Source: Chara braunii
Lineage: Eukaryota > Plantae > Charophyceae
Direction of reading: 5' to 3'
Assembly (NCBI GenBank): GCA_003427395.1
Contig: BFEA01000037.1
Location: 2,180,085-2,240,347 of the forward strand
Length of the DNA: 60,263 nt
The notes beneath the pieces were generated by a model. That model saw nothing but the letters and a program-made list of their open reading frames with translations. It was not told the origin of the DNA and searched no databases. Position 1 is the first letter of the stretch. Each line of letters starts with the position of its first letter. Shown here one piece after another: positions 15,311-49,256 of the stretch. The translations under genes were made by a program, and so were the position numbers.

Positions 15311-15329
15311 AGTTCGTCCAGAGGTACCC

Positions 15330-16080: not shown

Positions 16081-16199
16081 TTGATACCCTGTTTACACAA
16101 CCATACAAAGAACAACTTTTACTTTTTAGTCGATTATCCAATTCCTTTAGGCATAATTCCAACTTTCTTATTTCCTAATCTTACCATTTTTCCCTAGGT

Positions 16200-17838: not shown

Positions 17839-17856
17839 TCCCCGGCAACGGCGCCA
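17839..17856 (-). promoter_or_regulatory. Primer-binding site complementary to tRNA-Asp 3' end
   Basis: Minus strand reads ...CGACA GG TGGCGCCGTTGCCGGGGA, the complement of the plant tRNA-Asp 3' end UCCCCGGCAACGGCGCCA. Confidence 0.92.
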
Positions 17857-19450: not shown

Positions 19451-20891
19451 ATGATATTAAGGCAGGCTTCTCGGAGCCTCGCTCACTCTTATCACATTGT
19501 TCTTTATCAGTATAGTGATAAGGCAAGCTTCATCGAGCCTCGCTACTCTTATCACATTGATCTTAGTTATTTCAGTGGTAAGGCAGGTTTCTCGGAGCCT
19601 CGCTCCTCTTACCACATTGATCTTAGTTATTTCAGTGGTAAGGTAGGCTTCTCGGAGCCTCGCTCACTCTTACAACATTCTTCTTAGTTATTACAATGGT
19701 AAGGCAAACTTCTCGGAGCCTCGCTCTTCTTACCACATTGATCTTAATTATTTTAGTGGTAAGGCAGGCTTCTCGGAGCCTCGCTCACTCTTACCACATT
19801 GTTTCTTAGTTATTACAGTGGTAAGGTAGGCTTCTCGGAGCCTTGCTCCTCTTACCACATTGAAATTCGTTATTTTAGTGGTAAGACAAGCTTCTCAGAG
19901 CCTCGGTCTCTCTTACCACATTGTTTCTTAGTTATTACANNNNNNNNNNNNNNNNNNNNNNNNNNNNNNNNNNNNNNNNNNNNNNNNNNNNNNNNNNNNN
20001 NNNNNNNNNNNNNNNNNNNNNNNNNNNNNNNNNNNNNNNNNNNNNNNNNNNNNNNNNNNNNNNNNNNNNNNNNNNNNNNNNNNNNNNNNNNNNNNNNNNN
20101 NNNNNNNNNNNNNNNNNNNNNNNNNNNNNNNNNNNNNNNNNNNNNNNNNNNNNNNNNNNNNNNNNNNNNNNNNNNNNNNNNNNNNNNNNNNNNNNNNNNN
20201 NNNNNNNNNNNNNNNNNNNNNNNNNNNNNNNNNNNNNNNNNNNNNNNNNNNNNNNNNNNNNNNNNNNNNNNNNNNNNNNNNNNNNNNNNNNNNNNNNNNN
20301 NNNNNNNNNNNNNNNNNNNNNNNNNNNNNNNNNNNNNNNNNNNNNNNNNNNNNNNNNNNNNNNNNNNNNNNNNNNNNNNNNNNNNNNNNNNNNNNNNNNN
20401 NNNNNNNNNNNNNNNNNNNNNNNNNNNNNNNNNNNNNNNNNNNNNNNNNNNNNNNNNNNNNNNNNNNNNNNNNNNNNNNNNNNNNNNNNNNNNNNNNNNN
20501 NNNNNNNNNNNNNNNNNNNNNNNNNNNNNNNNNNNNNNNNNNNNNNNNNNNNNNNNNNNNNNNNNNNNNNNNNNNNNNNNNNNNNNNNNNNNNNNNNNNN
20601 NNNNNNNNNNNNNNNNNNNNNNNNNNNNNNNNNNNNNNNNNNNNNNNNNNNNNNNNNNNNNNNNNNNNNNNNNNNNNNNNNNNNNNNNNNNNNNNNNNNN
20701 NNNNNNNNNNNNNNNNNNNNNNNNNNNNNNGTGATAAGGCCGGCTTCTCGGAGCCTCGCTACTCTTATCACCCTGTTACTATCATTGTGGTGATAAGGCA
20801 GGTTTCTCGGAGCCTCGCTTACTCTTATCACCATTGTTAGAGACATCATTGTGATAAGGCAGGCTTCTCAGAGCCTTACTACTCTTATCAC
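19451..20891 (-). repeat. Hairpin-repeat/linker array in 5' LTR of element 1 (8 units, gap, 3 units)
   Basis: ~60-nt period. Outer stem switches between GTGATAAG/CTTATCAC and GTGGTAAG/CTTACCAC. Confidence 0.92.
19940..20730. other. Assembly gap inside hairpin array (other gaps at 32055-32174 and 50779-51458)
   Basis: Runs of N, all inside tandem repeats. Confidence 0.99.
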
Positions 20892-23800
20892 ATTCGTGTC
20901 ACTCGAGCCCTGGATCATTCGAAGCTTTTAAGATCACGAGGGTAGGCCATACGAGACTTGTACCCCATGTCTTAAATTCATCAGCATGATCACCGGCTGT
21001 GTTAGTTTGGACCTTTGGGGAGTATGCAGGCATAGGTCAAGCGTTAGTTGATGCAGCCAATCTTCATAGTATTCGACCATAGCATGCACAAGTCTTCAAT
21101 CCACTGCGAACCTCATCCCTTATCACTGGTCAGGTGGTCTATTAAGCAAGGGAAGATTGCACAAAGTCAATCCCCCTTGCTCCCACTCCCCCAGAAGAAA
21201 CGTTCACACAGCGAGACAGTTGCTCAGAAGTTCTCGTTCTCGCTATCTTTACCAACAACAGTTAGTCAAGTCTGGTCAGATCTTTTTCATGCAATCGAAT
21301 TTCTTCATGCTTCCCTCTTCCAAACATTTTCTCTTTCCCTAGTCTTCGGGTTTAGTCCTGAAGGATCCATGATGCGACGTACCCTCCTTATTAATACAGT
21401 CATAGGTAGTTACCTGAAGGTTATAGATTTAGGGTTTAGGATTTATGGTTTAGGGTTTTGGTTGAAGCGTGCGTACCTCGTTGTTCCGTGCCTCCAGAGT
21501 TCCGCCTGAACTCCAGTAGAGTTCCCGCAATCGCCTTGTCATTTGGATGCGTCTAGACTAACCAAGTATTTCAAACAGAATCGGAGTTTCTTGTGTTTAA
21601 GTGAGCAATTGAAAACATCATCTTCACATTTGCTTTTGAAAGATTGGTGCGAGAAAGGATTAGTCCTAGGAAAGGCGGAGGAGGATGAGGGAGGTAGAAG
21701 CCATCACTCTTTACGACGATCCTCCCCTCTTTACTGCCCCGCACCCTTCCCACCTCTGCACCCATTCTGGTATGTAATATCAAATGCTTATAATAATAAT
21801 AATATTAGTAACAATAATAATAGTAATAATAATAATAAATAATTACAATAATAATCATCGTAATTAATAAGCGAAAATGATATTCAAAGAATAATAATAT
21901 TTGATCTGGCGCAAAGTATCCACATAAATTCAAATTCTTGAACCTGGTCAAAAATACAGTAAAATTCATCTTTCTTTTAATCATGGTTGTGGTACCCAGC
22001 ACTAAACACTGTTTTTGTGCATTACAACACTTTCTAATCCAACTAGGACCTATCCTGAATGTCCCCCACACACACGTGCATACACACGCTTGCTGATGCG
22101 GCAGTTATGGGTACTCCCTTTCTTCTGCAGCTAGTTGTAGGCCATGACCGACCTACATCCTCTCAACTTGCTTTGACCTCGGCCCTTGCATACTCCCGCA
22201 CACCAGGCACTCCATTTTATTGTTGCATGGTACATAGGCAGTGTGGATGAATGCAATTCTTAGTGCATCGCGGTCTGGTCCTCTCGACCTAGGGCCAGAC
22301 GTGCTAAGTCCCACTTGGAACCTGCAAACCGGATCAAACTGACACGGGTTTAGGGACTACTAGCTGGACTTAGGTAGGATTGTCCCTTTTTTTTTGCCAT
22401 TGTATCAGCTGCTGGCCAATTGGACCCTTTCTTGGTACTCGATTCTGCTGGCATATTACCCTTATGAGGCGGCCAAAAGTTCAACCCCACGCAGCCCTCA
22501 TACCTAGAATGATCCCAAAACAGACAATCTTTAGGGGCAGGTCACGGTTTTGACCACACACGAACCACACTATATCGTACACGGGGTCAGGAATCGGCCC
22601 TGGGGACAGCGACAGTCTCATGCTTGGGTGAATTTGTATTGGTTCACATTAATAACATAATAATAATAATAATAATAACAGATTAAAGTTGAAAATGATA
22701 GTGAAACGGAAATAATAATATTCGCTATGAACTGCACAATTCATCACCGAAGAGCGCACATACATACATACAGCACCCATAAGTGAGATGACACGATTTC
22801 CACAATGGGTGCAAGAGAGTCACAGCCTATGAATTCCAGCCCATTATCATCAAAGCAAGCTAAGAGTTTGTGTCACCAACGCTCATCGGCGCGCGTGCAG
22901 GTAACCGGAGACCAGCACCACCATCCGGGTGAGCTCCTTGCATGTTTTCCTCCCTCTCTCTCTCTGTCTGGTTCCTTTCCCTAGCATTGTCCTTACCGTG
23001 TCTCTTCTCCCTACAAACATGCATACTCACAACTACCACACAAGGTTTCTACTCTGGACACACCCACTACTATGCTTATAGTTTCCCCCACTGTCTAGTA
23101 TTAACACTCTGTATTAGCGCAGCTATGGCTGCCTTCTTCCTACCAGCGCAACTCTCTCCCCCCCTTTCACTTATAACATTCTGTCCTCAGCGCTCTAACC
23201 CTTGCTTTTGGCGCACGAGTGCCTCATCACTTCCATGCTTGCAGCAAATGAGCATTTTGTCCGAATAGGAGGCTGGTCAGTCCTTACCTTGTTTTAGGAT
23301 GTCACTGGGTTATCCCATCTTCTGTAGCAAATGACCCAAGTTGGCCTGGTACCGCGTGCCCACTTCCTGTTTGCTTCAGAAAGTCATGGTCTGTTACTTT
23401 TCCCATTGTCTGAGTCTATGAGTCACCACTTTCGTCTGCGGCTCATGACTTTTGACTGGGAGAGTGACCTTTCCATCTGGGTCACGACCCTTGTATGTTT
23501 CTGTCTGTTCTGTCTGTCCTTGCCTGTTTCCGTTTGATTACTACGTTTCCGACCTGTCTCCGTCTATTCTGCCAGTCTTTGTTTGTTTCTGTCTATTTTC
23601 CTCCTACCTCTTCTCCCTCTTCACCTCTTCTCTCTCATGGCCATCCTTGTCCTTTTCACGCACCTCCTACGAGAGGAAATGAGCAATAGTGAAACTCGGA
23701 ACCCATGTTGCATTTTACATATGAAAACAAGTAGTCGTGACCTCGAATAAAGAGCAGAATTACAGTTCGATTAGCACCAATATTACATCAATGGGGAGCA

Positions 23801-24892
23801 AATAGCGAGATGACCAAATCCATATTGCTAATCACATTCGAGAGTCAGAACGTACCATAGTATCCAGAAAGCAATATTGCACCAATATTACATCAATGGG
23901 GAATGAAAACACTAAAAGCGACTGTTAGTGAGATCTCTCTCTCGCTCTCTCTCCATCACCATGGTAAGTACCCAGGTCCTTCTCTTTATTTGACGTTCGA
24001 CGCCCAAGCTACTCCCTACACCGTTGTTTCCCACTCGCAATTAATACTATAATCGATGACATTGGCAGCCACCGAAGTACTTGAGGAGATTGCTCAGCGC
24101 AGATAACCATCAAACCAGGTATTGTATGATACGTACCTGACCATAATCACTGCCGAATAATAATAATGATAACAATAATAACAGGGTGCCAGATAATAAT
24201 AATGATAACAATAATAACAGGGGTAGTAGTAATAATAATAATAATATAAATTAATTAATAATGATGGATAACAACGTATACAAATGTCATTCTCGGTCCG
24301 ATGCAACAAGCTGGGCACACGACAAGAGCAGCTCAATCTTCGAGAGGTTAGGCAAATGGCAGGGTAACCTTTACAATGTGTTCGGCGGATTTATGTCCAC
24401 GTCTCTCCACCTTTGCCCTCATCTATTCTCTTCCTCTTCTTTCTCCTCCTCTCTCTTTCCTCCTTCTTCCTTCCACTACTTTCTTCTTCTTCTCTCCTCG
24501 TTTCCTTCTACCTATCAGTAGCGTTTCGAGTGTAATCCGCCTGAAACAGTTAGTTTCTACCCTTTTTTGGTATTGGTATAATCTTAGGCCATCATTAGGT
24601 GAGTGCACGTGTCATTTGTATGTGAGAGGTGGTGGTCTCAGATACCTCTGTTCAACTTTCATATCAGCAACTCTCTTACTCCCTTCGCTCTCACTTCGCT
24701 TTCTCACTACTCCTCCACACACGACTAATGGCAGGACGTGCATCGCATTCGATTAGCAACTGAAGCAGCAATAATGTTAATAATCCGATTGCAATCATCG
24801 TATATAAGCCATTTTTCTAGCCAGATATAATCGTGATATTATGAGTGAAATAATAATAAAATAATAATAGTAAAATAATAATAGTACAATAC

Positions 24893-24927
<35 letters not shown>

Positions 24928-26857
24928 GTGCGCAAAAGGAAACGAGCAAGAGCGAAACAATAATGTACAGTTATGTTGAATGCCCGATCGGATCACTGTG
25001 CTCGGAAAACAACATTGCCCCAATAAGACACCAATGAAGAATTGTAATCCTGAACCAATGTCAATGGAAGATTGTTCCAGCCACTACCAAAATATCATGG
25101 CCCTTCTCTCTACTGAGCTACTATTATCCTCCTAATTGACAACGCTGGTATTGACGTCAGTGACCACCGAAGTACTTTGGAGAGGTCGCCCGTAACAGAC
25201 CATCGCCACTACCAGGTATATGCCTTCTCATCTTCATCCCCCATCTTTCTCGTTTTCTTACACTCACACACATATAATGATACACACGCACATACACATA
25301 CACACTTACGACTGGCAATCCCGCTGCCGGGCCGGAGTGAAGGCGCGACAGTGGCGGGCGCAAGTGGTGGCGTATATTCTTATGTTGGAGCGGGAGATTC
25401 ATTTGATTTTGCTTCTCCTCTTTCCTCCGCAACGCCGCATGATCCGATCAGCCTACCGAGAACACATTACGTCGGAGATATGGCAACACAAGTGCGCTCT
25501 CCAACAAGGTCGAACTGATGACAAGTTCATCCTCGCTTACGGTAAGTAGCGGATGAGGGGTCACGGCAATTTGCACTATTGCTGCATGGTGTCGCCCGGA
25601 TGACAAAAACCGCATTCCTACCTACCAAATCGCTTCACCTCCCAATTCAAAAGCAGTGGAACCACATCGCAGCACGTTCCTAGCAACTAAGTCCGATAAT
25701 GACTGTATATTTGTTATCAATCCGACCCGATACAGTCGTGAGGAAAGTGTGTTACATTCCGAGAACGGCAGCGCAACTACACGGTTTAAAGGAAATGGTG
25801 CCATCGACCAACCGATAGGTGAGCCAGGTAAACTTCCTCATCCATTTCTCCTTCTTCTCCTTCTTCTTCTTCCTCTTCTCCTCTTTTCTTCTCCTTCTTC
25901 TTCTTCTTTTTTTTCCTTTCCTTCACGAGTTTTCTCCTCCTCTCCCTGTTTGTAATCTCGCTCGTCTTTCCTTTTTCAGTTCGTTTCGAGTGTACGTGGC
26001 CTAAATCGCAGTCAGGTTCAGTCAGAATGAAGGTGAGTTCTATTCAAGGGAAACGATCGTTTTCCTTTCTCGTAATCGTTTTCTTTCCTTTTGCTTTCCT
26101 CTCTCCTTTTCCGTTCTCGTCTATTTTCACCTCGACTTTCTTTCTTCTTGCGTTCGAACTCCTCCTTCTGTGTCCGTCCTCCTTTTTGAGTGTTTGTGCC
26201 CTCATCTTCCTCACTTGCATCCTCCTCTTTGTTTCCTCCTTGTCAAATGTACGTAGTCACACTTCACCGCCAAATGTATGGTTTTAATAAAACAATAATA
26301 TTATTATGATTGAAATAATAATAACAATAAAATAATAATAATAATAATAATAGTAATAATAACGATAATAATAACAATAATATTAGAGATAACGGATGTA
26401 TACATCTTATCTCTCCGGTCCGATACATGTAGGAGAAGCATGGATTTCTCTTTAGAGAGAAATACACGGGATTGGAGACGATCGGGAGTATCTGACGTGG
26501 TAAGTTTCCCTCTTCTCCTCACCTCTCTCTTCTCCTCACCTCTCTCTTCTCCTTACACGATCCCTTCTCCTTCTCATACAAACACATACTCACACGAAGC
26601 TGCAACACAGATTTTTTAATTTTTAGACATAGGTTCGTTTGGTTTCATTCGTTTTGTGGATATAATCGTCATGATGTGAGCCGCGAGATTGGTGCAGCCC
26701 ATATGCCCACACTTACGCACTTCGCACACGCGTGCCCATGCACACACATGCAGGAAGTAATGTATGTTTCCGTAGTCGGCGGTAGGCTTATTCAATTTGT
26801 TTTTATCCTGTTGGTGGAAGTTCCATGAGGTTCGTAGTAAGGTTAAACTTACATGCA

Positions 26858-26933
<76 letters not shown>

Positions 26934-27880
26934 TGAAGCAACGTATACATCGATACTCTAGAGGTAGGTTCATTCGTGTGATGGGAGACTTACCTTGCAA
27001 CGAGGATGCTGGGCTGTGGTCGCCTGCACTATTGCTCCCCGATGCCACTCAAATGGCAAGGAGTGTTGATTCTCCTAACTGAGTCACTATACCTCGCAAG
27101 GCAACCACGCCCGGAATGCGCCGTTGTATTTGAACCCACTACCACCGCGACAAGGCGCAATCGCTTTCCCTAGACCTTACAGGATGAGGATGCCAAGGCT
27201 AGGAGTAGAAAACAGGTAAGTTGCCTTCACCTCCCTCCTCTCTCCTCTTTTTCCTTCTTCTTCTCCTTCTTCTCCTTCTTCTCCTTCTTTTTCCCTCTTT
27301 CTCGTTCGTCGCTCTCTTTTCCCCTCCAAGCCGTGCTCCCTCTCTTCTCCTCTGCGTGTCTCCCTACTGCGCACCGCCTCCCTGTTCGTTCGCCAGCCGT
27401 TCCCGGTCGTAGTGTCCCGCTCTGTCAGCTTTCTCACTCTCATCCCTCCATGCGCCCACCTCGCTATTGATTTCTGTTGTTCCCCATAGTCCCCTTTGTT
27501 TTTTCCTTGCACCGTGTCTCTCGCGTTTGTGCAAGTAATCCCATTTGGTGCAGTAGCCCCGAGCGACCGGTTTGATCGCTACCTTAGCCAGCCCGTTGCA
27601 AGCTCCCTAGGATAAACCTGCCCCGACTCCGAGCGAAGATTCACTAACAGTGAATCTTTGAATCAACAAAAATCTCGGAAAAGAAAAAAAACAAAAGAAA
27701 ATCTAACTACTATCCGCCCAGTCGTTCCAACTGTCAGTTACCTGTCACAGGGGCGGAGCCCTTATGCTTCAAGCCCAACTACTTTCAATCTGCAGATCGC
27801 GAGTTCGAGTCGCTGCTACCCAAGGTGGGGGCAAAATACTATTGAGCTTCATGTCAAAATGGAGCTAGTCTCGGTGGCCG

Positions 27881-27944
27881 GTAGGCTTGATCCCCGTACC
27901 CTTCACTTCTAAGGCCAATACCGAAACCTACTGAGCTAGCTTCC
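27881..27944 (-). ncRNA. tRNA-derived cassette, 5' LTR copy (1-nt deletion in B box)
   Basis: Paralog of 8000-8064. Confidence 0.6.
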
Positions 27945-29497
27945 ATTCTTGACAGAATGGGAGCAATTCCTGTATAGGTATTAAAGTGTGGCCTAGTCCA
28001 ACTAGTGGACCGGACCCATTTCTAATTTTCTTGTGTTTGTACACTAGTTAGCCTATGTATCTGTCTGAGCGTTTGTCGGCTTGAGTGTGCGCAAAGGACA
28101 CTTTCTTGACCGGAAGGCCCGACAGACCGGTACTTTCCCATGGTTGCGTCATCGAGGGCCGCCGCGAGGAAACACCCAAGTAGCGGGTAGGCTGATACTA
28201 TACCTTGTAAAGGTAGATGTGTCGAGTACTTGAGGCCGAACAAGCCGACATTTTGTGTGTCATAGATGTACCCTATCATGACAGTAACCAAATCAACCCC
28301 TCGACCTTCCTGGTCGAAGGATATCAGTGTCGATCCTAACTATCACAGTGTGTGCCATAATGATGCACGAGCTCATACGAAATTCTAAGTTCAGATTAAT
28401 TCCTTCGAGGTGGTCGGCACAACTGACCTGCCGACTGCAAAATCACGGCCAAATACCCTTGTAAGGGTATTTGGTCCGACAACACGCAGAGGTTGGAAGA
28501 GCTTGCGCGGGGGTAGTGCACGCTCGACCGACTGGAGATGGCTCGAGGGAAGTAGAGGAGAAATTGTGCGGTGAAAGCAGGTGTGGTAACACGAAGGTGG
28601 AGCGCGGGCAGAAGTGGCTGCGCGCAACAATGAATGAAGGAGATAGTGCGTGGGAGAAGATCGAGAAGGGGGTGACAACACGGAGGAAAGAGATGGCCGC
28701 ACGGTAGAAGGAGAGCGTGGGAAGGTAGCGCAAGCGGGCAAGAAGAAGAATAGTTGCGCTAGTAGGATGAAGAAGATAGCATGGTGCGTGGATCGCAAGG
28801 GAAGCAGAGCACACAAGAGCAGAGCAAGAAGGAGATGGCCGCTCGGTGAATGAAAAAATACAGTGCGCGACTGCAGGCGATGGCAACTGGGAGAATAGCG
28901 ACATAGCGGGGGAAGGAGAAGAAGTAGAAGGGAGAAGAAAAAGAAGTAGAAGGGAGAAGAAGAAGAAGAAGTAGAAGGGAAAAGAAGAAGAAGAGGAAGG
29001 AGAGATAAAGAAGAAGAAAAAGAAGAAGAAGAAGAAGAAAAAGAAGAAGAAGAAGGACAAGAAGAAGAAGAAGAAGAAGAAGGAGAGAGGCCAGGGAAAT
29101 GTGACTTACCCGTCACCCGGCCGGCATGTTGGAACGTGGGCTTGTGTCGGTCGAGCTCTGTGCGATCGTCACGGAATGTTGCACATTGCTGCGGAGCGGA
29201 AAGCAGCCAGCTTTCAACGACAGGGGCGGTGACGACGACGATGACAAGAGAGAGATCAGCTAAGTCTTCTATCAAGCAACAAGCACCGGGTTCTTCGATC
29301 GATAGAGTGAACAGAGACTAATGAACCTATCACTAGAACATGGGAAGTCTACACTATTGCTATGTGTGTGTGCGAGTGAGTGTGTGTGTGAATCGCGGTG
29401 AGTTTCATACTAATGCCATCGACAGGATGAGCAAAATCGAATGAATGTACAGCAAAAACACGAAAATATATATCACAAAGTGCATCCGTGCATATGC

Positions 29498-31588: not shown

Positions 31589-32450
31589 AGAGATGGTTAA
31601 CGGGTGCATATACTTTCAGGTCTCCTTTTCAAGCAGTTCAGCCACTTTAGGTTACTATACCACTTTCAGATTATGTGTGGCAGTTGTCTGAAACCGCTTT
31701 CAGATTGTCTACAGATCCATTGCAAATGGTGGGATGGGGGTACCTGAAACCCTTTTCAGAAGCTTCAGCCACTTCAGCAGTTTCAGATCCCCACCTGAAA
31801 TTTTTGAAATGGCCTGAAGTGGTTGAAGCTTCTGAAAGTGGTTTCAGGTACGTACCTGAAACCCCTTTTAGAAGCTTCAGCCACTTCAGCGGTTTCAGGT
31901 CCCCACCTGAAATTCCTGAAATAACCTAAAGTGGCTGAAGCTTTTGAAAGGGGTTTTAGGTACCCCCATCCAACCATTTGGATGAGGGTACCTGAAACCC
32001 CTTTCAGAAGCTTCAGCCACTTCAGCGGTTTCAGGTCCCCACCTGAAATTCCTGNNNNNNNNNNNNNNNNNNNNNNNNNNNNNNNNNNNNNNNNNNNNNN
32101 NNNNNNNNNNNNNNNNNNNNNNNNNNNNNNNNNNNNNNNNNNNNNNNNNNNNNNNNNNNNNNNNNNNNNNNNNNGGGGTTTCAGGTAACCATTTGGATGA
32201 GGGTACCTGAAACCCCACTCAGAAGCTTCAGCCACTTCAGCGGTTTCAGGTCCCCACCTGAAATTCCTGAAATTACCTGAAGTGGCTGAAAAAACAGGCA
32301 GGAAAAAAAAAAAAAAAAAAACATAAAACTTGTCCTTCAAACCACCCAAAATTTCTGAAACGACCTGAAGTGTCTTCAGGCCATTTCAGCGGTTTCAGAC
32401 CACTTCAGAATCTTTCATTCTGGAATTTCAGGTGGTCGTTAACCACGAGT
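31589..32450. mobile_element. Non-autonomous DNA transposon (MULE-like) with internal CCACTTCAG/CCTGAAA repeats
   Basis: Perfect 10-bp TSD GTCACTTCCG (31579-31588, 32451-32460). Short inverted ends containing TGGTTAAC/GTTAACCA. Confidence 0.85.
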
Positions 32451-32691: not shown

Positions 32692-33567
32692 GTAATATTA
32701 TTATTATTATATCGATTTTATTTTCAAACAGCAAGTTCAGCTATGAACAGACAAGGAAAGTGAGTGCGTACCTCAACTAGGGGTGCTGCGGGGGGGCTCG
32801 CCGCCGAATGTGAGGTCTTCCTTTCCTCTCTCTACCTTATATACCTTGTATCAGTACTACATCAAATTATTATGGATGCATTTGTGTCTGACTGTATGAA
32901 TTTGTGACCTTCTATCTGACTATATGAATCTGTGACTTTCTTCTTGATAAAATCTGAGATAGGAAACTGCTATGCCTGCATTTGCAATGCTTGAAGTGAT
33001 TCCGGAGTTCTTGTATTGTGAAAACTTGATGGAATGCGGATGTCGTGCAGACCAATCTTGTTGTCTGATTGTTGATGCGATTTGGATACGATTAACTGTT
33101 TCGGAAAACGCATCGTGAGAACGAGAACCTCTCGTATGGGCTGTCTCACCATATGTATGTTTATTTTGGGAAGATAAAGCAGCGGAATGTGGACTCCGTG
33201 AAGTGATGTCCTGCTTGATAGGATCTTCTAACATTGATGAGGGTTGGGATTACTGCAGAAGTTATTGGATTGCGCATTGTTATGGATGCATGGGATTATT
33301 GATTGGCTAACCCATGAGGGATATCATGAATGTATCATTGTCAGAGCATCCTGACTAACACTCATTTTCTTAAACTAATGCAAGTCAAAGGTCAGTTGCA
33401 GGACTTATGAGAAATACGTAATGAGGTGAGAGTTCCCGAGTGAACTTCCTCATTAGGTGTTTCATTGAGTCATTGGGATGTGGTCCTGTGTGGCCTGCCT
33501 GTCTGACTTTAAAGACCTTCAATTGACATGAGACAAAGGGGTTCTTCTAAAGAAGTAAACTAGTAGG

Positions 33568-34040
33568 GGTAATAAGAGGAGCGAGGTACCGAGAGACCCG
33601 TCTTATTACCTGAATCTGCCTTTGTGGTAATAGGAGGAGCGAGACCCCGTGAGGTCTGCCCTATTACCAACCCACACAAAAGAGGGGTGTAATAAGAGTA
33701 GCAAGGCTCCGAGAAGCCTGCCTTATCGCAATAATTGCACGGACGGTGTGATAAGAGTAGCAAGGCTCCGAGAAGCCTGCCTTATCGCAATAATGGCACG
33801 GACGGTGTGATAAGAGTAGCAAGGCTCCGAGAAGCCTGCCTTATCGCAATAATGGCACGGACGGTGTGATAAGAGTACCAAGGCTCCGAGAAGCCTGCCT
33901 TATTACCCGCCAGCGGTGCTTCAATGCAAACAGCGGTAGGAGGAGCAAGGCACTGAGATGCCTGTCCTATTGTCCAGCCGCATGGATAAAGGAAGTGGTA
34001 GTAAGAGGAGCGAGGCTCCGATAAGCCCGCCTTATTACCA
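33568..34040 (+). repeat. Hairpin-repeat/linker array in LTR of element 2 (8 units)
   Basis: GTGATAAG AGTA GC A AGGCT CCGAGA AGCCT GC CTTATCGC and covariant forms. Confidence 0.92.
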
Positions 34041-35813
34041 TCTGACCTTGATCTAATGCAAGACAGTAAATAGGCGAAGCAAGATCCTTGAGGTCAGACG
34101 CCCAGTGAAGATGAGTAGATCCCGAGTGGTCTACCATACTGTTACTAATCTTCTCGATAGACAGGAAACAATGAAAGCCCTGAAAAGAGACCGATCCATT
34201 ACTGACAGACCGCTTCCTGATTCTACTGAGGTGGAGGTAGAAGGAATGTCGCCCCATGTGACATGTCCTGCTATCTTAACCTCTTGATTCATATCTATCT
34301 TATGATTTTATTACAGATGAGTTAATGATATTCTGCCTGTGCATGTCTTAAGTGGGGATCATATGACGAGACAAAAAGTACTGGCGATATTAGTTTATGG
34401 TTTGATGAGAAGTTAGAGAGGCTGCCTAGAGGGAGTTATATCGATGTAGTATTATTCCCAACTAGAATGAAGTTCACTAAATTAAACTTCAGATAGGATC
34501 ATGTCGATAGCAAAGAGATGTAAAGACCGTGTTGACATGTGTGTGATTGCAGATCACCTTTACTTTCAAGGAGATTTATTATGAGTCTATACAAGACTAC
34601 ATGTTGTTGCCTTATACAGGTTGGTTCGCCAACTCAATGCTCACTCACCCCGACACCCACACTTTGCATTGACGTATGCACGAAAAGGCATTTATGATTT
34701 TGGGTCATTGTCTAAAGAGTCTGTGTTTTGATAAAAAAAGGTCATTGAAATGATTGACGTCAGATTTTGGATGAATGACTAAGTCAAAAAGGGAATGTCT
34801 GGCTGAGAGGATCGAAAGTGTAAGTGTAATGTGGGTGAAGTGAATGAATGGTTGACTCTGTTAGAATTGTGAAATGTGATTGACTCTTGTTTGCAGGTCA
34901 GTAAAACGACCAGCCACATGCTATTCACTGCAACCCATTGAGAAACTTATGCTATCCTAGGCCTTGATCCAGATGTTCCATCAGTGCGCGATTGGTTTGA
35001 GTACCCGGCTTTGCGCCTTTCCCCTGATTGTTAGGAAGATTAGGATTATTGTTGAGGCGACAAACCTTATTCATTTCATGTTCATTTCATTTGTACATGT
35101 TTGAAAGGTCAAGGACCTATGTTTTTTCCTTGATGAATTCTGACTATTTATGTGAGAGTGTAAAATGTATATGACATCTCCTTGCCTAATTACTCTGTCA
35201 TATGTATGCATGGTATGGCTAAAGGGTTTTTCACAAAGAGATATGTTGAATGGACTTAGTCACTAGGTAGGGTGGGTATGTATCTTATGCGCAATCCCTG
35301 GTAACTCAAGCATTGAGGGGATTGTGCTTCAGAAAGGAGCTAGGTAATGAGTCATACCTATTGGAACTGTTTATAGGCAAAGCATAGTATGCGTGAACGT
35401 CCATCGGTCGAATCGACCTGAATTGTGAGTCGGTCCGGGAGATCAGCGCCCCGATGCTCGACGCGTATACGAGTCAGTCTTAGGCGTTCAACCGCGCTTA
35501 TGCCTATGCTACGGCGATCGAGCAAACACCCTCGGCTGACTTACCTCTACGAATGCATGTAAAAGCTTTCGCACATGGGTTGGTAGCTCAACAAGGATAC
35601 GCCTACCTGAGGGTGGTGACAACCCCTCTTGTAGAGGTAAGTTGTACCTCACGGCACCCCAACCTGTCGTGGGGTGTCGTGAGAGGTACAACACGCACGC
35701 ACGGTCGGAGTGGAAACTAGTTCTTTTCAACAACTCTGAAGAAACATCCTGTGTGGCACGACCGTGAGGTTCAATGCTCCCAAGGTGGGTGCGAAACCGC
35801 CGCGCACAACAGG

Positions 35814-35831
35814 TGGCTCCGTTGTCGGGGA
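35814..35831 (+). promoter_or_regulatory. Primer-binding site (tRNA-Asp-like, 2 differences from PBS1)
   Basis: ...CAACA GG TGGCTCCGTTGTCGGGGA. Confidence 0.85.
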
Positions 35832-37380
35832 CCTTCGGTTACGCGTCGAGGTCCTATGTGAACGGACCTCGGTCTGGTTAATTGAAGCTCTAGCAAAACG
35901 ACAAATGAAAGATAAAGTATTACACAAGTTTTATTTAGTTGGTAAGAAACTGCTAAGGACGATTGTCAGTCTAAACCGACTAAGGATATCTCATTGAGAT
36001 AGAACAAGTACAAGTTGAAGTATATAGCCGCCGTATTTTACGAATCTTAGTTTGCCTTCTATCGTTTCCCCAAGATCATAGTTACTCTAGTATTTGTTCA
36101 TGAGGTGGTATGGAAAGTAGCGATCAAGGATTGCATAATAGGATTTGACAAGCCTCATCGGTAGAAATAGTGGAGGAACCAACAGGCACAATGGGATTTG
36201 ACAAGCCTCGTCGGAATACTGCCTGAGAGTTTTCTACTAAAATATCCTCTTCGAATTGTAGCACTTTCTGCCCCTACGATGACCGTGAATACTTCATATT
36301 CCGAAGTCTTTATTTCCTTTAGCTAAGGAGATCACACTACACTATAAAATTTGAGATCCTTCTGTAGGAGTGCACATCTTTATACATAAACATTACCATT
36401 AGAGTCTAAGTCCTTAAGGCACTACTCTAGGTGTTGCATATCATCCAGCCATGCCACGCGAGGCAGGAACTAGAAGAGGGAGCGGCGGACGGCAGGGGAA
36501 AGCGACAGAGAAAATTATTGATTTGACAAGGGAAAGAGAGGAGCGAGAGGAAGGAAAAGAGGAAGAGGAGAAATGCAAAAGAGTATGATTGCGTCGACAT
36601 CAAGAAGACATGCGCGAACGAATGTCGTCTCCTAAGAAAATGGCCTATTACTCTTATAAGTACGAACAACGTTACGACTCTCCGCCACCACGCTTTGAGC
36701 CGCCTTTAGTACTTATCCAATGACATACCCTTCCCCCTCTTCTTCCATAATGCGTCGACTCGAATACAACAGTTGACCGTCCTTCCCTAATCACCTCGAC
36801 CTGCCCTTCCACCTCCGCCACCTAATGTATCTGATTCCCCCGTGGCCTCCCAGGTCGCACCGATAAATAATAGGCTTTGTATCACCCTGACACTATTCTT
36901 TCTGTGTCAGGTTGAACTATGTAGGCTAATTTCATATCTATTATACAAAGGGATTATCTGACGAATGTTTCGGTCGTTTGGTGAGTAGGGAGATATTCTA
37001 AAAAGAGAGTAATAGAGTCACGATAAGCTTCAGGCCTCTCCCTATCATGCCGAATAACGATGGTTGAGGTAATTGGGGTAGTGAAACGCATTGAAGCTAT
37101 ATAGGGGTAATGACCCTAAATAAGCACTTGACCCCGACGTCAATATTTTCTTTCCTAAACTAAAGTATTGAGTAAATAAGAAGTGGGGAACAAAGCCTAG
37201 CTAAAGTATTGAGAGGAACTCAGAGAATATAGGAAGGAATGAGTAAGGAGGTGTCAGTAAGAATCTCTAATCCAACTTTATTCCTTTAGTAGAAAAATTG
37301 GGGGCCGTATATTAATGATTGTCCCATTTTTGTCTCATGCGTAACAGGTTGAGAGAAGGGGACGCCCAAGTTCAATCAAG

Positions 37381-38106
37381 ATGCCTTACGCGATGCAGGT
37401 TTCCAAGGTCGAGTCACCCGTAAGAAACTGTGCTGGAGTAGAAATGACACTGCCAAAAGGAAGAGGCAGAGCGGACAGTAGCGAGGCATGGTGGGGGAAC
37501 TCGCTGGAAAATAAAGCTTTTACGTGGGTAGAGACGAGCTGGGGTACGGTTGAAGAATGTAGTGTTTTGAGAGTCACGCTATATCTTTCATCTCGTCTCT
37601 GGCATAGTCATGGAATGAACCTCATTCAAGGAGGAGAAGCTTATCTTAGACAGCTTACGGGAATGGCAGAAGCGGCTCCCAATGTTTGGGGCCGAAGAGG
37701 TCAATGACAAAATGCAAAGAAAGTTAGGGAAGAAGTCAAAATGTGACCAACCCAGGACTTTGTCCTTCCTACCTGCCATATTAGAGTCACGCTCAATGAC
37801 TCTATTATCAACGAAGGGTTTAATGGTCAAGCAAGGGTTGAGTTGGCCGCAGAAGCTGCTCTAATGGTACCTAATAAGGGGTATGATTTTTCCACCTCCC
37901 ATTTGATATATTGCTTATACTTGGAGATGGGTCCCGAACTAGCGAAAAAAGATTTTAGGAACGTTTTGTCCATTATAGATGCATATGCCCGAACTTGCTT
38001 TATGGAGGAAAGGTTTGGGTATTGGCAAAAGTTGAAGGAGGAGGTTTGCACGGGGATCTGTGTGGATGGTATTCCCACCATGTTTAGTTTCGTTTATAAA
38101 TTCTAG
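37381..38106 (+). pseudogene. Accessory ORF copy A of element 2 (frameshifted)
   Basis: ORFs 37381-37707 and 37843-38106: MTLPKG..WWG..AFTWVETSW..RVTLYLSSRLW..IYCLYLEMGPEL..YWQKLKEEV. Confidence 0.82.
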
Positions 38107-38492
38107 ATTGGGACTAGGTGACGGTAAGCAAAACGGAGGAAGAAGAGAGGGGATTTGTATTCTAAGAGTGATAGGATATGGTGCTATGATAATATGAGAA
38201 TATGAGGGGCCATAAGGGGAAGATGAGGAAGTTGAAGGATGGCAATTGTTTGTCTAAGTTGCCAAAGGAAAAAGGAGTAATGAATGGGAGTCCTGAGAAG
38301 GGAAGGATATGATATGAAGAGGGAGGAAACATTAGGATAAAACGGTCATGTCTCTAACAGGGTTAAGAAAATTAGGAGTTATTAACTATGGTAAGAGGAG
38401 ACATGTCGACACTGACCGGACTTACACATAGGTATTGTGTGCACTTTTTGTCTTTTTCTTTGTATCACTCGGGCTACCAAAGGTCGCTCAAC

Positions 38493-39240
38493 ATGTCATA
38501 CGCCGATCAGAGATTTGAGGTTGAATTGTCGGTTCGTACTCACCAGGGATTGACGATGTCATTGCCACGGGGTATGAGTGAAAGGGAGGAAGAAATCGCC
38601 ACATGGTGGAGCACCTCCATTGTGCCCGAAGCATTTGTGTGGGTAGAAATTGAGCACACCCCGGAGAGAGAGTATAATAATTCGAGCAACCCGGTATCTT
38701 TCATCACACTTGTGGAGGATGCATGGGGTAGATTTGGTTGTAGGACATAGTCAACCCCTGTCTAGGTATATCCTGATTACGGGGGCAATTCTTGAGGATA
38801 AAATTCGAGAGGCGAGTTGGGGGGAATTTCGACCCATTATATTTTTTGCTTATCCCACCGATTATATAATGACCACTCTTCCAGACTTCATCATTGATGA
38901 GGTCTTCAAAGGACACGCTAAAGTGGAACAAGCAGCCTTGGTTGCCGTAGCCGTACCTCAGGGGGGGTACGGATTTTTCACGCCTCAGACTCTTTATTGC
39001 CTATATTTGGAGATGAGACCAGAGTTGGCTAACAGAGGTTTTGAGGAGATTCTTTCCACGGTAGATGCTTACGTTCGTATCCACTTTATGGAACCAAGAC
39101 AAATTTATTGGGAAAAGCTTAAGGTTGAGGTACAAATCAAGGCATGTATCGACGGTATCCCTATATTGTTCGGAATGGTGTATGACTCCTGCACGGGAGA
39201 CTGGGTATCTGCAGAAGAAATTGGAAGGGTAGGATGGTAG
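38493..39240 (+). pseudogene. Accessory ORF copy B of element 2 (one frameshift near 38660)
   Basis: ORFs 38388-38750 and 38650-39240: MSLPRG..WWST..AFVWVE..YLSSHLW..TTLPDFIIDEVF..LYCLYLEMRPEL..YWEKLKVEV. Confidence 0.85.
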
Positions 39241-39545: not shown

Positions 39546-41520
39546 ATGGGAGACGTTAATGGGACAGAAGGACAGCGGTCCATAACTGCAGCCGAGATCG
39601 CACGACTACTGGATAATCGGAATGTCAAAAAATCTCAACTGCCGAGGATAAAAAAAATTCCCTTCAAAGGAGAACGGGGTCTCAGTGGCTATGGAACATG
39701 TCTTCAACCGACTAACACCAACAAAAAAGTTCGCTCAATTATTTGAGTATGTATGGTGGGAGTTTCGTCCAGAGATCGAGAAGATTGTGGCCGATGCCTA
39801 AAGGAACTGGACTGGTTCCAAGAAAGAGATGCAATGAAAGTATGAATTGGGGGACGGATTGTTAACAATCGACCAACTTCACAACATCGACTGGAATGAT
39901 TTCACTACGATAGGGGCGTTTGCAACAACCTTCGAAAAAATGGCGGAACGAGTTTCGGGATTTTCAAAGGAGATGCAGTGTGTTATTTTTCTGGAAAAAA
40001 ATTCGGGTTATGAGACTATGAAACTAACTCGTGAATAAGCGACGGGGGGGGAAACATTTTGGGAGATGATAAAAAGAATTTATTGTCTCGGGATTTGGAT
40101 CAGGTATTCCACCATCAGGTAAAGATGGAAAGGAAGAGAAGGAAGGAAGTATGTGTTATCCAAGGAGCAGATTCGGCTCTAGGAGGGGTGTTAAGTAGTG
40201 TAGTAACTCAACTGAAGAAATTAAAGAATAAAGTGGAGTCAGAAAAAGTAATGGCAGTCGGACAAGCGACAAACAAAAGGAGATACGGAGAGGAAGATGA
40301 AGGGAATAAAGAAGGGGAGAAACCTGAGCAGGCAATACAATCTAAGAAAACCCAAAAGCAAAACCAAAATCAGGCATCGAGGAAGCAAGGAGCTGGAAAG
40401 GGGCAAGATTCGCAGCAAGCTGTGATACCAAGTGTTCCAAGAACACCAACCCCTTCATCTCAATTTGGACCTTGGTCGATCGTGGCTCCTATGGGGGTTT
40501 GGCCTTGGCCTGGATACTACCCCGGGAATCAATTACCAGGTTTCAGACAAATAGGGATGTACCCAAACTTACCCCAAATGCAAGAAGTTAGGTTAGGACT
40601 ATCACAAGGCCGAGGAACAGATGACAGTCAATCACAACACGCTCTGCCGCCACAAGATAACCCAGGGAAAAATCAGTTTCAAGGGCAAGGATATGGATAT
40701 GGACATGGTAGAGGGAGAAATGAAGGAAGAAGAAATGGTCAAGGAGGAAGAGGATTTGGAGGAAGACGAAACGGCGAACAAGGAGGAAATTGGGGCAATC
40801 AAGGAGGAACTCAGTCTGGAAACTACAATCAGGTGAGTTTCAATCAGATTGGACAATGATACAATCAAGGTTATGGTTAGGGCTATGGTCAGAGCTATAA
40901 CCAGAACTATGGTGGAGGTTTTGGTATGAGTGATGGACAGTGGAACGGTCAAGGGTCAGGAAGAGGATGTATAGACTACAGTGAGTGCACTTGTACGCAC
41001 TGTCAAATCACGAGTCATACAGTGAAAATATATTATGTTCGAAAGATGGATGAGCAGGACGGATTAATCACATCAATCATATATGGGGATGTATCCGATA
41101 AGCAAGGAAGACGGATTGATCCGAACATCCCCGGAGGAACAAGGAAGGAAGCACTCAGGGTTGCGGGGCTTGGACCCAGTGCCCCAGCCATGTTTCGTAT
41201 ATGGTAGGAGAAAGAGGATCCGTTTGTTCGAGTGGAAGACATAACCGAGTTAAGTGAACAGTTGGAGGAAGAGTTGAGGATAGATCAAAAGAGAGAAGAA
41301 ACTCATTTGATCGACCTTAAGCCTGAGGAGGAAAAAACGCCTAAGGAATCAACAAAGGAAACAATGAGAAGAATGAAAGATTTAATAGATACGATGGAAA
41401 GATTGAATACGAGGATAACAGGCATATGCGGAGAAGTTAGAGACTGAGAGATGAGGATTCCGCATGTATTCACTATGAGTCAAGGAAAAGAGGATGATGA
41501 GCTGAGAGTACCTAACCCCA
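39546..41520 (+). pseudogene. gag of element 2
   Basis: MGDVNGTEG..IPFKGER, NDFTTIGAFATTF, G/N/Q-rich tract, degenerate zinc knuckle CTHCQITSH. Multiple stops. Confidence 0.88.
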
Positions 41521-41699
41521 GAGCTATGAACCAGCTCAGGCTCCTTTGTCACCTCTGGGTGAAGCTTCTATTTATATAGAAGAAGATGAGGAAGATCAAG
41601 ATGAATTACCCAGGGGAGAAGAGGACAAATGCGCTGAACAGAGAGCCAAGAAACATAAGCAGGATATTAAGGAAGGAAAGGAAAAGACTGAGGAAAAAT

Positions 41700-42446
41700 C
41701 AAAGAAGAAGTAGAGGTACCAGACGTCGATTGAAGAAGAGGTAGATCTGAAAAATTTAGTAAACAAACTTCTTGAGGGACATAACGAGTTGTTGAATCTG
41801 AAGGAGATTTTGGCAACAACACAAAAACTCAGAGAATTAATTAAGGCCAAGTTGGCGCGAAAGAGAGTAGCGACGGTAAGGTTGGGAGATTTAATTCCCA
41901 AGGAGACAAATTGGACAATCGTTGGGAGCAAGATGGACTGGAAGTCTATAGGGACGGGATCCATTGATGTCAATATCAGAGGAAAAAGGTGCCCTGGGAT
42001 GGTAGATACTGGGGCAGAGATGAATATTATGAATTTGAAAACGATTGAAAGACCCGGGTTGAAAATCGATAAGAGAGATTGTGGGTATCTCAATGGGGCC
42101 AGTGAAAAGTCGGGGTTTTGCGTCAAATGTGATTGTGGAAGTAGGACGGGTCAAGGTCCACGCTTGCTTCTACATCATGCCTAACTTAGATCTTCCCACA
42201 TTATTGGGGAGATCATTCTTATCACGATCAGAGACCCTCATCATGAACGAGCATGACGGGACCATGTTCGTGATTCTATGTGACCCTGCATGTGGGAACT
42301 TCGAAGTCATTACCTGTAAAAATACAGGTCCCCACAGTTCAAAAAACCGCCTCGATGTTGGGTCATATACCTTTGAGGAATCTGAGCATAGAAGGAAGGA
42401 ACTAGAATGGGGGTCAGACGAGGAAAATGAGGAAGAAGAGAATTAA
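41700..42446 (+). pseudogene. Aspartic protease region of element 2
   Basis: MVDTGAEMNI and LLGRSFL. Frameshift near 42120. Confidence 0.9.
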
Positions 42447-42508
42447 GGGTTAGCATTGAGTTTGGCTAACATTGACCAAGCAATGTACATGGTCTTCGTG
42501 TATGAGCA

Positions 42509-43270
42509 GTGGTCCACTTGGATCTATTGACAATGTCATTCAGACTAGGGGGATACAACTATATCTTTGATGCCAGAGACAATCTTACAGGATTTGTTGA
42601 TGGGAAAGTCATCCGGACTAAGGCATGGGCAGTCTTGGCCGAGTGCATCAAGGAATATTACCTCCGATATCCCTTTGTGGTAGAATTCACGATGGACAGA
42701 TGATCGGAATTTACAAGCGGGGAAGTGAAGGAATTGTTTGACGATCTTGGAGTAATCGCCAATTATACAACCAGAGTTCATCCTCAAGCAAATGCACCAG
42801 TGGAAAGGGGGCATAGTACCATCATAAAATTACTAGCCAAATGGACAACTGGGAAGCTGAATCTCTGGCTAAAATTCATGTGAACTGTATTCTTCGTTGA
42901 GAACGTCATTGTCATTTGAAGAATTACTTGACATCAGGGCAAGGCAAGTCATTGTCACCGAAGAGAGGATTAAAAAAGCAGTCGAAAAGGTGACTTACAA
43001 CCGTGGAAAAAACAAAAAAAAATGGAACAGGCTTCCTCGGGTACGAGCTGAACCACTGGAAATCCGGGACGAAGTATTGTTGTATGATTTGTCCCTGGAG
43101 AAGCAATGATCAAGAAAGTTGAACAAGAGATGGTTGAGACCTTACAGAGTAAGGCGTCGGGGAATCATGAGGCCTACGTACTTGAAGAAATGGATGGGAC
43201 GCCAAGGAGGGACTGGATTTCTGGATCCAGGATGAAGAAATTCAAAGTAAGGCAAGATGTGAGTAGATAA
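42509..43270 (+). pseudogene. Integrase core/C-terminus of element 2 (RT, RNase H and Zn finger deleted)
   Basis: VHLDLL..YNYIFDARDNLTGFVDGK..FTMDR directly follows the post-protease linker. Confidence 0.9.
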
Positions 43271-44489
43271 AAAATAGAAAATAAAAAGAAAGATTAATAA
43301 TGGTATTGTAAAAGCTTTGTAATGACTTTTCCTTTGCGAATATTTTGTTGTTCCCTAGCTACTGACTCATCCTTTCACCTGTCACCCTCTTTCCTTTTCT
43401 ATGTGCAGGCGTTGTCGAGCACATCGGCCCCCGTGCGAACGAGGGTCCTCCCGACCACGTCACGCAAGATTTACACAATCAAACAAAAACACGGAGACAA
43501 CTTCGAGACGGCGTGAAATAGTTTCCACGAGCCGCCGAGGCGGTGCGCGGTCGCGTCGTCCCTTCGCCTATCTAGCCGAGTGCGCCAGTTGGTACATCCC
43601 GTGGTCCCCTACGACAGGATAGGTTCCCGCGGGGCATAAGCTTGCTTCTCTAAGGGGCTGTCACCATTCTCAGGGGCGTATCCCTACCGAGCTACTGACC
43701 CACATGCGAAATTTTTTTTACATGCAGTTGCAGAGGTGGGTCAGCCGAGGGCGTTTGCTCGCATGATGTAGTATAGGTATACGTGATTAAACGTCTGTTG
43801 AACATGGACGTCGTCCGTCACTTAGGGCGCCGATCTCCTAAGGATGAAGCGTATGCCGATCGACTACAGCGGTTTCACTCAAGTATAGAAACCAACAACA
43901 ACTTGTCTCTAGTCCCTTGCACATAATTTCCCCATACAAATACAGATATATATGTAATTTATTCAGACGAAATCACAAAAAATAATACACATGAAGTCAC
44001 TCTTTCAGCTCAACAATTATAGCACAATTCTTTAATAGGTTTGGTCTTACGAAAAAGGATCATGCTATCGTACTTTCCTACTCGTCGTCAATATGGTCAA
44101 CACATAAATTTCATTTTTCAAGCCTTTTAAGTTAAAGTCAAACTTTTTCCCAAGTCTGGATTTAGAACAACATTATGCCTACAAAAGCATGTCATGGGTA
44201 GCTTCTGCAAGTAAATACTACTGCTACCATGCAAATCAACAAGTAATCTGGTTCCTGGTCGAAGTTTGAACTCTCGGTTCGACCCCACCTCTGCTATCGT
44301 CTCATTCTTGCTTCTGACATGCGTCTTTACGTATGTGGTTACCCCTCAATGCATAAGCATGATAGTGTCATCATCGGGGTAATCCAGATACTATCCATTT
44401 GGCGGTTCTATCTACTTAATGTGTTTTTATTTTGTGTTTTATGATTATCTCGTGAAGTCATGAGTCATATGACTTCCTCAACAGGACAA

Positions 44490-46729: not shown

Positions 46730-47200
46730 TTGTAAATCCTATGTCGTTGTTGTGAAAAAAATTCGGCAGCTCTTCCACACTACTGTCGTCAAACTTAGTG
46801 CTGTCACTGCAAAAATCCGGCAGCGCTTCCGCACCACCGCCGTCAATCTTAGTGCCGCCGCCGCAAAAATTTGGTAGCGCTTCCGCACCACCGCTGTCAA
46901 TCTTAGTGTCGCCGCCGCAAAAATTCGGCAGCGCTTCCGCACCGCCACTGTTAATCTTAGTGCCACTGCCACAAAAATTTGGCAGCGCTTCCGCACCACC
47001 GCTGTCAATCTTAGTGCCACCGCCACATAAAACACCACCGCTGTCAATCTTAGTGCCGCCGCTGCAAAAATTTGGCAACACTTCCGAACCACCGCCTCAA
47101 AACCTGCGTGGCCGCTGCAAAAGTTCGGCAACACTTCCGTACCACCGCTGTAAAACCTACGTGGCCGCCGCCTTGCCGCTGTAAACTTTTGGCAGCACTT
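46730..47200 (+). repeat. 54-bp GC-rich minisatellite
   Basis: CAGCGCTTCCGCACCACCGCTGTCAATCTTAGTGCCGCCGCCGCAAAAATTTGG units at 46821, 46875, 46929, 46983. Confidence 0.9.
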
Positions 47201-49101: not shown

Positions 49102-49143
49102 CTCGATTTATATGTGTCATCCTTGCGCAAGGGTCATGGTAAT
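49102..49143 (-). ncRNA. U6 snRNA-derived fragment (ISL and 3' part), not a full U6 gene
   Basis: ATTACCATGACCCTTGCGCAAGGATGACACATATAAATCGAG vs recalled plant U6 ATTAGCATGGCCCCTGCGCAAGGATGACACGCATAAATCGAG: 37/42 by hand. No ACAGAGA box. Confidence 0.85.
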
Positions 49144-49256
49144 GTCTACGCGGTTGTTCCCAGCCACTAGATCTTATCGATCGTACGGCCGGAAACGGCC
49201 GCGTCATAGAAACCGGGCTGCTCCAAAAAGAAGCTATGCCCAGAGGTGCGGTTCCT

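Follow-up and report, generated by a model that had tools for sequence, protein, structure and literature searches.

To our knowledge, structured cis-acting RNA of LTR retrotransposons is poorly known beyond the yeast elements Ty1 and Ty3 and a few cases such as ENE. Among viral systems, HBV epsilon serves as the template for protein priming by reverse transcriptase (RT), and Rev/RRE-type export is a case of an accessory protein acting on genomic RNA. HIV-1 TAR is described as carrying a pyrimidine bulge with a U23:A27-U38 triple (PMC6189040), and pseudo-triloop hexaloops are reported as protein sites in TAR, epsilon and the iron-responsive element (IRE); in NMR of a TAR model, a hexaloop 3' A went with no visible cross-loop pair (PMC3884659). 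The IRE is characterized by a bulged C8 and an A15-G16-U17 triad (PMC8466369). The Xist A-repeat is reported to gather SPEN, tight binding needing four repeats (PMC10870365). As for LTR elements and their relatives, the cited part of the work on Cer1 CERV describes an accessory protein that is required for export of the genomic RNA (PMC10309623), ENE is presented as a structured cis-RNA that aids mobility of plant LTR elements, Evade among them (PMC12501189), and the hairpins of the foamy-virus miRNA clusters are described with A/B boxes and T-run terminators (PMC3993851).

Here we analyze a 60,263-nt stretch of the Chara braunii genome (contig BFEA01000037.1; hereafter, the window), in which a tandem array of bulged hairpins had been noticed in a sequence-only reading and likened to TAR and epsilon in fold and to CRISPR in layout. 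The array is a real and selected structured motif, apparently undescribed, borne by the LTRs of a gypsy lineage of Chara type. Our literature searches showed no description of such an array; the element families may be catalogued in the Chara braunii genome supplements, Repbase or Dfam. The expectation that it belongs to no known RNA family was borne out by an Rfam 15 search, since none of the 18 window matches at E <= 1 overlaps any array.

The array within two LTR retrotransposon families

The window consists of nested transposable elements, among which we found neither a recognizable host gene nor a tRNA gene. Element A is a Ty3/gypsy LTR retrotransposon, with a TG...CA LTR pair, a primer site and the order protease, RT and integrase, on which its assignment to Ty3/gypsy therefore rests. 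Protease and integrase were matched in Pfam, with a weak RT between them (E 0.025), and an integrase ORF of the window matched a Chara braunii protein at 58%. The 5' LTR of element A (17859-28481, minus strand) measures ~10.6 kb including an N gap and has TG...CA ends. In the alignment of the LTR pair, the 3' LTR (minus strand) begins at 8601 and continues past the first position of the window; the two differ by 6.5% substitutions. The internal region between them (8602-17856, minus strand) holds a tRNA-Asp primer binding site (PBS), ORF0, X1, X2, gag, protease, RT and integrase, all decayed. The 18 letters of this PBS are identical to those of the tRNA-Asp PBS of FIDEL, which is described as an Athila-like element (PMC2844528).

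Element B lies on the plus strand, and its internal region is collinear with that of element A at a protein identity of 32-79%. The portion of its 5' LTR that aligns with the element A LTR spans 33110-35811 and ends in a terminal CA at 35811; the 5' start of this LTR was not found. Downstream lies a tRNA-Asp type PBS (35814-35831, plus strand) with the motif as in FIDEL, which differs from the element A PBS in 2 of 18 letters, and alignment to element A further uncovered gag, protease and integrase remnants at 39550-43266 (plus strand). The RT/RNase H stretch present in element A is missing, protease running almost straight into integrase at 42446-42509, which reflects either an internal deletion or a non-autonomous family. 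The inverted end of a third related LTR, 73-80% like the A and B LTR ends, follows directly after the element B integrase (43400-43800, minus strand); the covariance model found no array upstream of it. Elsewhere in the nest, satellite-like arrays of 54, 92, 172, 53 and 91 bp occupy 46757-47168, 50582-52455, 55489-56190 and 57017-59505. Their 92/172-bp blocks occur twice, ~7 kb apart, and are perhaps the ends of another element. A U6 snRNA match under the gathering score (49085-49145, minus strand; 32.5 bits, E 2.7e-4) precedes an A-rich tail and looks like a retroposed U6 fragment.

As originally claimed, the array is borne by an LTR, which was confirmed by the LTR alignment and by the PBS downstream. 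In element B, the covariance model and a stem/loop check delimited eight units at 33565-34043 (plus strand), within the 5' LTR and 1.8 kb upstream of the tRNA-Asp primer site. These units start at 33565, 33623, 33685, 33744, 33803, 33862, 33929 and 33994, with a regular period of 58-67 nt, and units 3-5 plus their linkers are recent duplicates. The array of the element A 5' LTR (19381-20895, minus strand) consists of three units, a 791-N gap, eight units and one degenerate unit, that is, 11 full units plus a degenerate one; the 3' LTR shows its first three units (1-192, minus strand) before the array runs off the window. Both LTRs of the element A family and the 5' LTR of the diverged element B family hence carry the array. 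If 60-nt units filled the N gap (19940-20730), the element A array would total ~25 units vs 8 in element B. A palindromic 112-bp tandem repeat with long hairpins and sub-threshold Rfam miRNA matches lies ~1.3 kb upstream of the element B array (31732-32290).

Short signal-like words flank both arrays. A TATA-like word occurs 530-730 nt upstream of each (32838 in B, 21426 in A), and an AATAAA-like word lies just downstream at aligned places (34170 in B, 19330 in A). Were these words real, they would weakly suggest that the array is in R, and hence at both ends of the RNA. Two telomere-repeat-like words, which we take to be of telo-box type, sit beside the TATA-like word of element A (21458-21426, minus strand), 530 nt upstream of its array, and are absent in B.

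Hexaloops of the CYGWGN type on stems of at least 4 bp number 32 in the window vs ~9 expected, 14 of them being array units. Lone hairpins of this kind have their loops at 33436, 33486 and 34122 in element B and at 19365 and 524 in element A. The first of these (33412-33465, plus strand) combines a 3-nt bulge with a CCGAGU loop and folds with z = -5.7 in sense and -2.8 in antisense. The region at 34036-34151 (plus strand; folding z = -3.0 and -2.3) contains a degenerate ninth unit and the downstream CCGAGU-loop hairpin at 34122. The positions of this hairpin and of that at 19365 correspond in the alignment, within a stretch where the two families share ~80% identity, whereas the surrounding LTR mostly aligns poorly. 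Since the lone hairpins carry other stems, the loop recurs on different stems.

Linkers, as we delimited them, measure 16-25 nt. The proposal that they are unrelated, barring recent duplicates, stood for element B, where linkers are mutually at shuffle-level identity once three recent duplicates are set aside, but not for element A, whose linkers are akin (mean identity 0.59 vs 0.45 for shuffles, and up to 1.0, two being identical). Searched against the rest of the window, element B linkers gave best matches no better than shuffles. RNA-seq reads of other copies contain units joined by still other linkers (2-3 reads each). These observations are most simply explained if unit and linker were duplicated together in tandem and the linkers then drifted. 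We therefore dropped the CRISPR-like layout, because the linkers of element A descend from each other by tandem duplication and have no outside match in the window; likewise, a CRISPR-like array with acquired spacers was rejected, linkers being related (A) or duplicated (B) and window matches staying at shuffle level.

Fold of the unit and selection on its pairing

Each unit spans ~42 nt and folds into an 8-bp outer stem, a purine-rich bulge of 4-5 nt and a 3-bp step, followed by a bulged A and a 4-bp stem that is capped by a CCGAGA-type hexaloop. The outer stems, inner stems and loops quoted in the sequence-only reading were all found in the sequence where it had placed them. However, its register of 2 bp, 1 nt and 5 bp pairs 92.2% of the alignment cells, and that of 3 bp, bulged A and 4 bp does better (95.7%); similarly, its 4-nt large bulge holds for most units but is 5 nt long in 6 of the 21 aligned. 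The 3-bp step reads GCR/YGC, and the bulged A is invariant in 21/21 units. The large bulge begins with A in all 21 and continues with G in 20, and three unpaired A are invariant throughout. C1 and G5 of the hexaloop are both present in 18 of 21 loops, which on the letters would allow a cross-loop pair, and loop positions 2-4 are mostly CGA or UGA. Both bulges lie on a single arm, leaving the unit devoid of dyad symmetry.

Of the 22 full units, 21 were used to build a covariance model and therefore match it by construction; the unit at 20726-20775 was omitted from the alignment, as its 3' flank enters N. The model recovered two units outside its training set, this one (64.3 bits) and the degenerate unit at 19381-19430 (30.9 bits). 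The next match, at 17.4 bits, was the antisense of a unit, and no other scored above it in the 60 kb. The 491-nt array region folds with z = -4.1 in sense and z = -3.6 in antisense.

The RNAalifold structure pairs 95.7% of 300 cells, with double-sided changes at 7 of its 15 pairs. None of 500 column shuffles equalled it, and slid controls paired 32-51%. Column shuffles overstate support, as the units are kin, and hence we relied on tests with natural units, including a neutral simulation in which the observed number of stem substitutions was placed randomly at the observed transition share. Five units compared with reference unit B4 kept 73 of 75 pairs vs 59.1±3.1 under neutrality, a value reached by 0 of 20,000 runs. 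With a reference unit from the other family, 88 of 90 pairs were kept vs 72.0±3.3, and element A's more recently duplicated units alone yielded a small excess (128/135 vs 122.4±2.5, p = 0.02). Both sides have changed in 12 pairs; 11 of these form Watson-Crick pairs once more, as compared with 3.7±1.5 in the simulation, and one is broken, changes common to several units being counted once per unit. One-sided stem changes keep pairing in 13 cases and break it in one, and permuting arms among six B units equalled the real pairing in 2 of 720 permutations. Transitions make up 34 of the 38 stem changes, so that some double changes will arise by chance. The proposed covariation was thereby upheld beyond neutral drift (73 of 75 pairs, 11 double-sided changes), as was the conservation of bulge and loop. 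Among the six B units, conservation amounts to 0.89 in the bulge, 0.83 in the loop, 0.77 in the outer stem and 0.66 in the inner stem, and linkers remain at shuffle level, three recent duplicates being set aside. Such a gradient from unpaired to paired to linker positions is what one expects of a nucleic acid that is structured and presents a surface for recognition. These data provide strong evidence that pairing, bulge and loop of the array are under selection, in the two alignable families, both from this one window.

Working form, candidate readers and alternative explanations

On the sense strand, the seven distinct units of element B have 10 G-U vs 1 A-C pairs, or 9:1 when counted by hand as events (binomial p = 0.021). 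The corresponding ratio in the element A 5' LTR is 16:4, and 8:4 without a pair of ambiguous register. Decay between the two element A LTRs is neutral and strand-symmetric (0.044 and 0.044), and a G-U:A-C ratio of 1:1 is therefore expected. The G-U bias first noted on the sense strand is accordingly clear in element B but weaker in element A. Folding energy picks no strand, the sense being better in 12 of 21 units as RNA and in 10 of 21 as DNA; indeed, units fold as DNA too, at a mean of -8.3 kcal/mol. On the excess of G-U over A-C and the one-sided bulges, we hold with moderate confidence that RNA is the probable working form.

Transcription was scored in three oligo-dT RNA-seq runs from one study, the raw-read ones among 17 listed, with long inserts and with 6-13% of each run read. 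Runs X1 and X3, which behave as stranded, had one-sided peaks elsewhere and zero depth on every array bin. Run X2 showed low depth in both directions, derived from relatives: 0 of 212 reads were 99% alike, and its strand lean was the same on elements A and B, although the two lie in opposite orientations. The earlier reading had called for transcription of the array in sense, which these runs did not show. Silenced elements would also look like this, so the RNA-seq is an absence of support and no refutation. Molecule starts or ends did not pile up on the arrays in these long-insert oligo-dT data, which have little power for the purpose. Elsewhere in element A, the palindromic repeats of the gag-protease interval (13093-13522) were covered more deeply than any other part of the internal region in each of the three runs. 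Hundreds of reads continue from a 40-nt LTR piece of this element at 5352-5392 into unrelated coding-looking sequence; the piece may be a chance likeness or a captured gene fragment.

The expected element-encoded accessory ORFs do exist. Both families carry ORF0 plus two paralogous ORFs of ~240 residues (X1 and X2) between primer site and gag, all of them broken. In element B, the ORF0 remnant (36451-36900, plus strand) has an Arg/Gly-rich start, a charged helix and a proline-rich tail, interrupted by stops and frameshifts. ORF0 is conserved in element A (39-52%); its basic start is short, with 5-6 Arg/Lys in 20 residues, and neither a homologue among longer proteins nor a Pfam match was found for it. 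Alignment to element A delimits the broken X1 remnant of element B at 37387-38106 (plus strand); its paralogue X2 (38469-39240, plus strand) has homologues only among Chara braunii predicted proteins. The tandem X1/X2 paralogues lie at 37387-39240 (plus strand) in B and at 16800-15247 (minus strand) in A, and gene models often fuse this family to gag-like sequence. A HMMER search with ORF-X returned 10 matches, of which eight are Chara braunii hypothetical proteins; the other two (E ~4e-4) were dropped as unrelated long bacterial-type proteins. The eight homologues contain no Pfam family, and the ESM Atlas gave no usable match. When an AlphaFold model of a Chara ORF-X homologue (pLDDT 65, pTM 0.60) was compared with PDB and BFVD by Foldseek, nothing matched at E <= 0.001. 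The best Z of the model, 5.3, was to a gelsolin-like fold, a common arrangement, and the comparison shows neither a new nor a known fold. No RNA-binding fold for ORF-X emerged from Pfam, Foldseek or structure comparison. Exact unit patterns retrieved nothing from metagenome, viral and prokaryote collections, and a scan of metagenomes with the Chara integrase identified no locus.

Evidence on the functional role of the array is indirect. A putative protein-binding array, as first suggested, is kept as the best reading, given the selected pairing and a bulge and loop more conserved than the stems. We favor, at somewhat less than an even chance, an array that acts on the sense RNA as a multivalent docking site for a candidate element-encoded protein, which would promote making, exporting or packaging of the full-length RNA. 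The sense-strand RNA would be the working form, with the array in the transcribed R part of the LTR. The putative reader, for which ORF0, ORF-X and Gag are candidates, would contact the large bulge, the bulged A and the CYGAG loop; tandem duplication would change unit number while linkers drift as neutral spacers. Once bound, the protein might aid synthesis, export or packaging of full-length RNA by analogy with TAR or RRE. If the reader is indeed element-encoded, it would form with the array a new pair of RNA and protein, the naturally occurring equivalent of engineered MS2 arrays, and accessory control of a retrovirus-like kind would exist in an alga related to land plants. A bolder version, possible and on balance doubtful, is a charophyte gypsy lineage with its own Tat/TAR- or Rev/RRE-like system, in which 8-25 TAR/epsilon-shaped hairpins, tuned by copy number and present at both genomic-RNA ends, would be read by an element-encoded protein of a new fold. 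If true, this would bring complex-retrovirus type RNA regulation to the green lineage, and both the RNA motif and the family of RNA-binding proteins would be new. The array may help explain the spread of very large gypsy elements in Chara genomes, and, as a clean covarying motif with a small defined unit, it can be directly probed and mutated.

All the structural evidence would fit equally if a host export, elongation, translation or RNA-stability factor, recruited or titrated, read the same RNA array. The unit is alike in two families with proteins 32-79% identical, as suits an unchanging host partner, and the Xist A-repeat, described with 8.5 repeats and less conserved linkers (PMC10870365), has the same layout. 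However, no known host RNA motif matches, the IRE features fail, and the lineage-specific accessory ORFs kept by the element need a job, all of which makes a host reader unlikely to us. Function at the DNA level strikes us as quite unlikely, whether as tandem DNA-binding sites (a U3 promoter or enhancer, or an anti-silencing target of the VANC kind) or as cDNA hairpins in strand transfer. A double-stranded site would keep letters rather than pairing, one-sided bulges of variable length shift the arms against each other, and neither 11 double-sided changes nor the G-U excess would be expected of it. Yet the units do fold as DNA, stranded RNA was not seen in these runs, and precedents are described: tandem repeats are the targets of VANC proteins encoded by TEs (PMC5735166), the LTRs of Sirevirus elements contain a palindromic cis-region (PMC4728375) and tandem repeats are common in U3 (PMC3601003).

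The regular period would also suit a precursor from which small RNAs as long as a unit or a linker are cut by a Dicer-like enzyme, by a different nuclease or by the RNA itself, as foamy-virus LTR hairpin clusters are reported to yield miRNAs (PMC3993851) and Sirevirus palindromes to be siRNA hotspots (PMC4728375). We deem this very improbable: for a duplex of 21 nt, stems of 15 bp with two bulges are short, the linkers are not sequences acquired from elsewhere, the arrays contain no canonical A/B boxes or T4 runs, Rfam gave neither a miRNA nor a ribozyme match to them at E <= 1, and the RNA-seq, with the little power mentioned, revealed no site of many molecule starts or ends. The small-RNA release or self-cleavage considered in the initial reading thus found no positive evidence, there being no Rfam ribozyme, Pol III boxes or T-runs in the arrays. 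Finally, a neutral minisatellite without function could have its arms matched by hairpin-templated repair or template switching, these LTRs being rich in repeats and palindromes and the prevalence of transitions producing some double changes by chance. The simulation includes such chance double changes and falls far short, though, and templated repair would erase the bulges, both of which persist in 21/21 aligned units. Moreover, the unpaired letters are the most conserved, and the two families share the position and the flanks of the array although the LTR DNA next to it barely aligns between them. We give the neutral account scant credence.

Comparison with known systems

The proposed protein-binding RNA array resembles HIV-1 TAR in being an LTR-borne bulged hairpin with a hexaloop (here CUGAGA/CCGAGA) in which a C1-G5 cross-loop pair is possible, and in its element encoding small basic accessory proteins. 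The array hexaloop ends in a 3' A, as in the TAR-model case lacking a visible cross-loop pair. It differs from TAR in its purine-rich bulge of 4-5 nt, in an extra bulged A and in its 8-12 or more tandem copies. Membership by the pyrimidine bulge and the U23 triple fails, the bulge starting with A in 21/21 units and continuing with G in 20/21. With HBV epsilon it shares a two-stem build, with one larger and one single-base bulge, and a hexaloop of pseudo-triloop type (PMC3884659; see also PMC1636360), but the loop and bulge letters differ and the units here form a tandem array. The tRNA-Asp primer site of the element argues against a need for epsilon-like protein priming. The TAR/epsilon-like fold thus stands as a resemblance in shape only, and not for the TAR pyrimidine bulge, which is absent. 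The IRE was discarded, the bulged base being A in 21/21 units and the loop having no AGU triad. Likenesses to twister, hairpin ribozyme, K-turn and sarcin-ricin motifs were dropped, with no Rfam match.

Regarding LTR elements, Cer1 CERV is likewise described as an LTR retrotransposon with a novel accessory protein acting on genomic RNA, whereas no RNA array is named in the cited part of that work (PMC10309623) and we found no sequence or fold link to ORF-X. ENE also is a structured cis-RNA element of plant LTR retrotransposons, but it is placed between ORF and 3' LTR and has U-rich internal loops (PMC12501189), whereas the array is intra-LTR; its purine-rich, one-sided bulges fail the U-rich internal loop feature. 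A Pol III miRNA cluster of foamy-virus type was rejected on canonical boxes only, no such box and no T4 occurring in either array. With Athila/Calypso, as described (PMC2844528), the elements share a tRNA-Asp primer site, long LTRs, gypsy domain order and extra coding capacity; they differ in an LTR of ~10 kb and in extra ORFs before gag rather than after integrase. The PBS complementary to tRNA-Asp is present in element A and, with two differences, in B, a clade likeness by features. VANC targets (PMC5735166) represent the DNA-level counterpart of the array.

Closest in place are the Sirevirus palindromic region and U3 tandem repeats. The former comprises hairpin-forming repeats of plant LTRs kept across families; nonetheless, Sirevirus elements are Copia, their loci differ in sequence, and the cited passages describe no covarying repeated bulged unit (PMC4728375). 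Closest in layout is the Xist A-repeat, with about eight conserved structured units, poorly conserved linkers and multivalent protein binding, albeit of unrelated sequence and fold, in a mammalian lncRNA, and with the U-rich linkers and inter-repeat duplexes described for it (PMC10870365).
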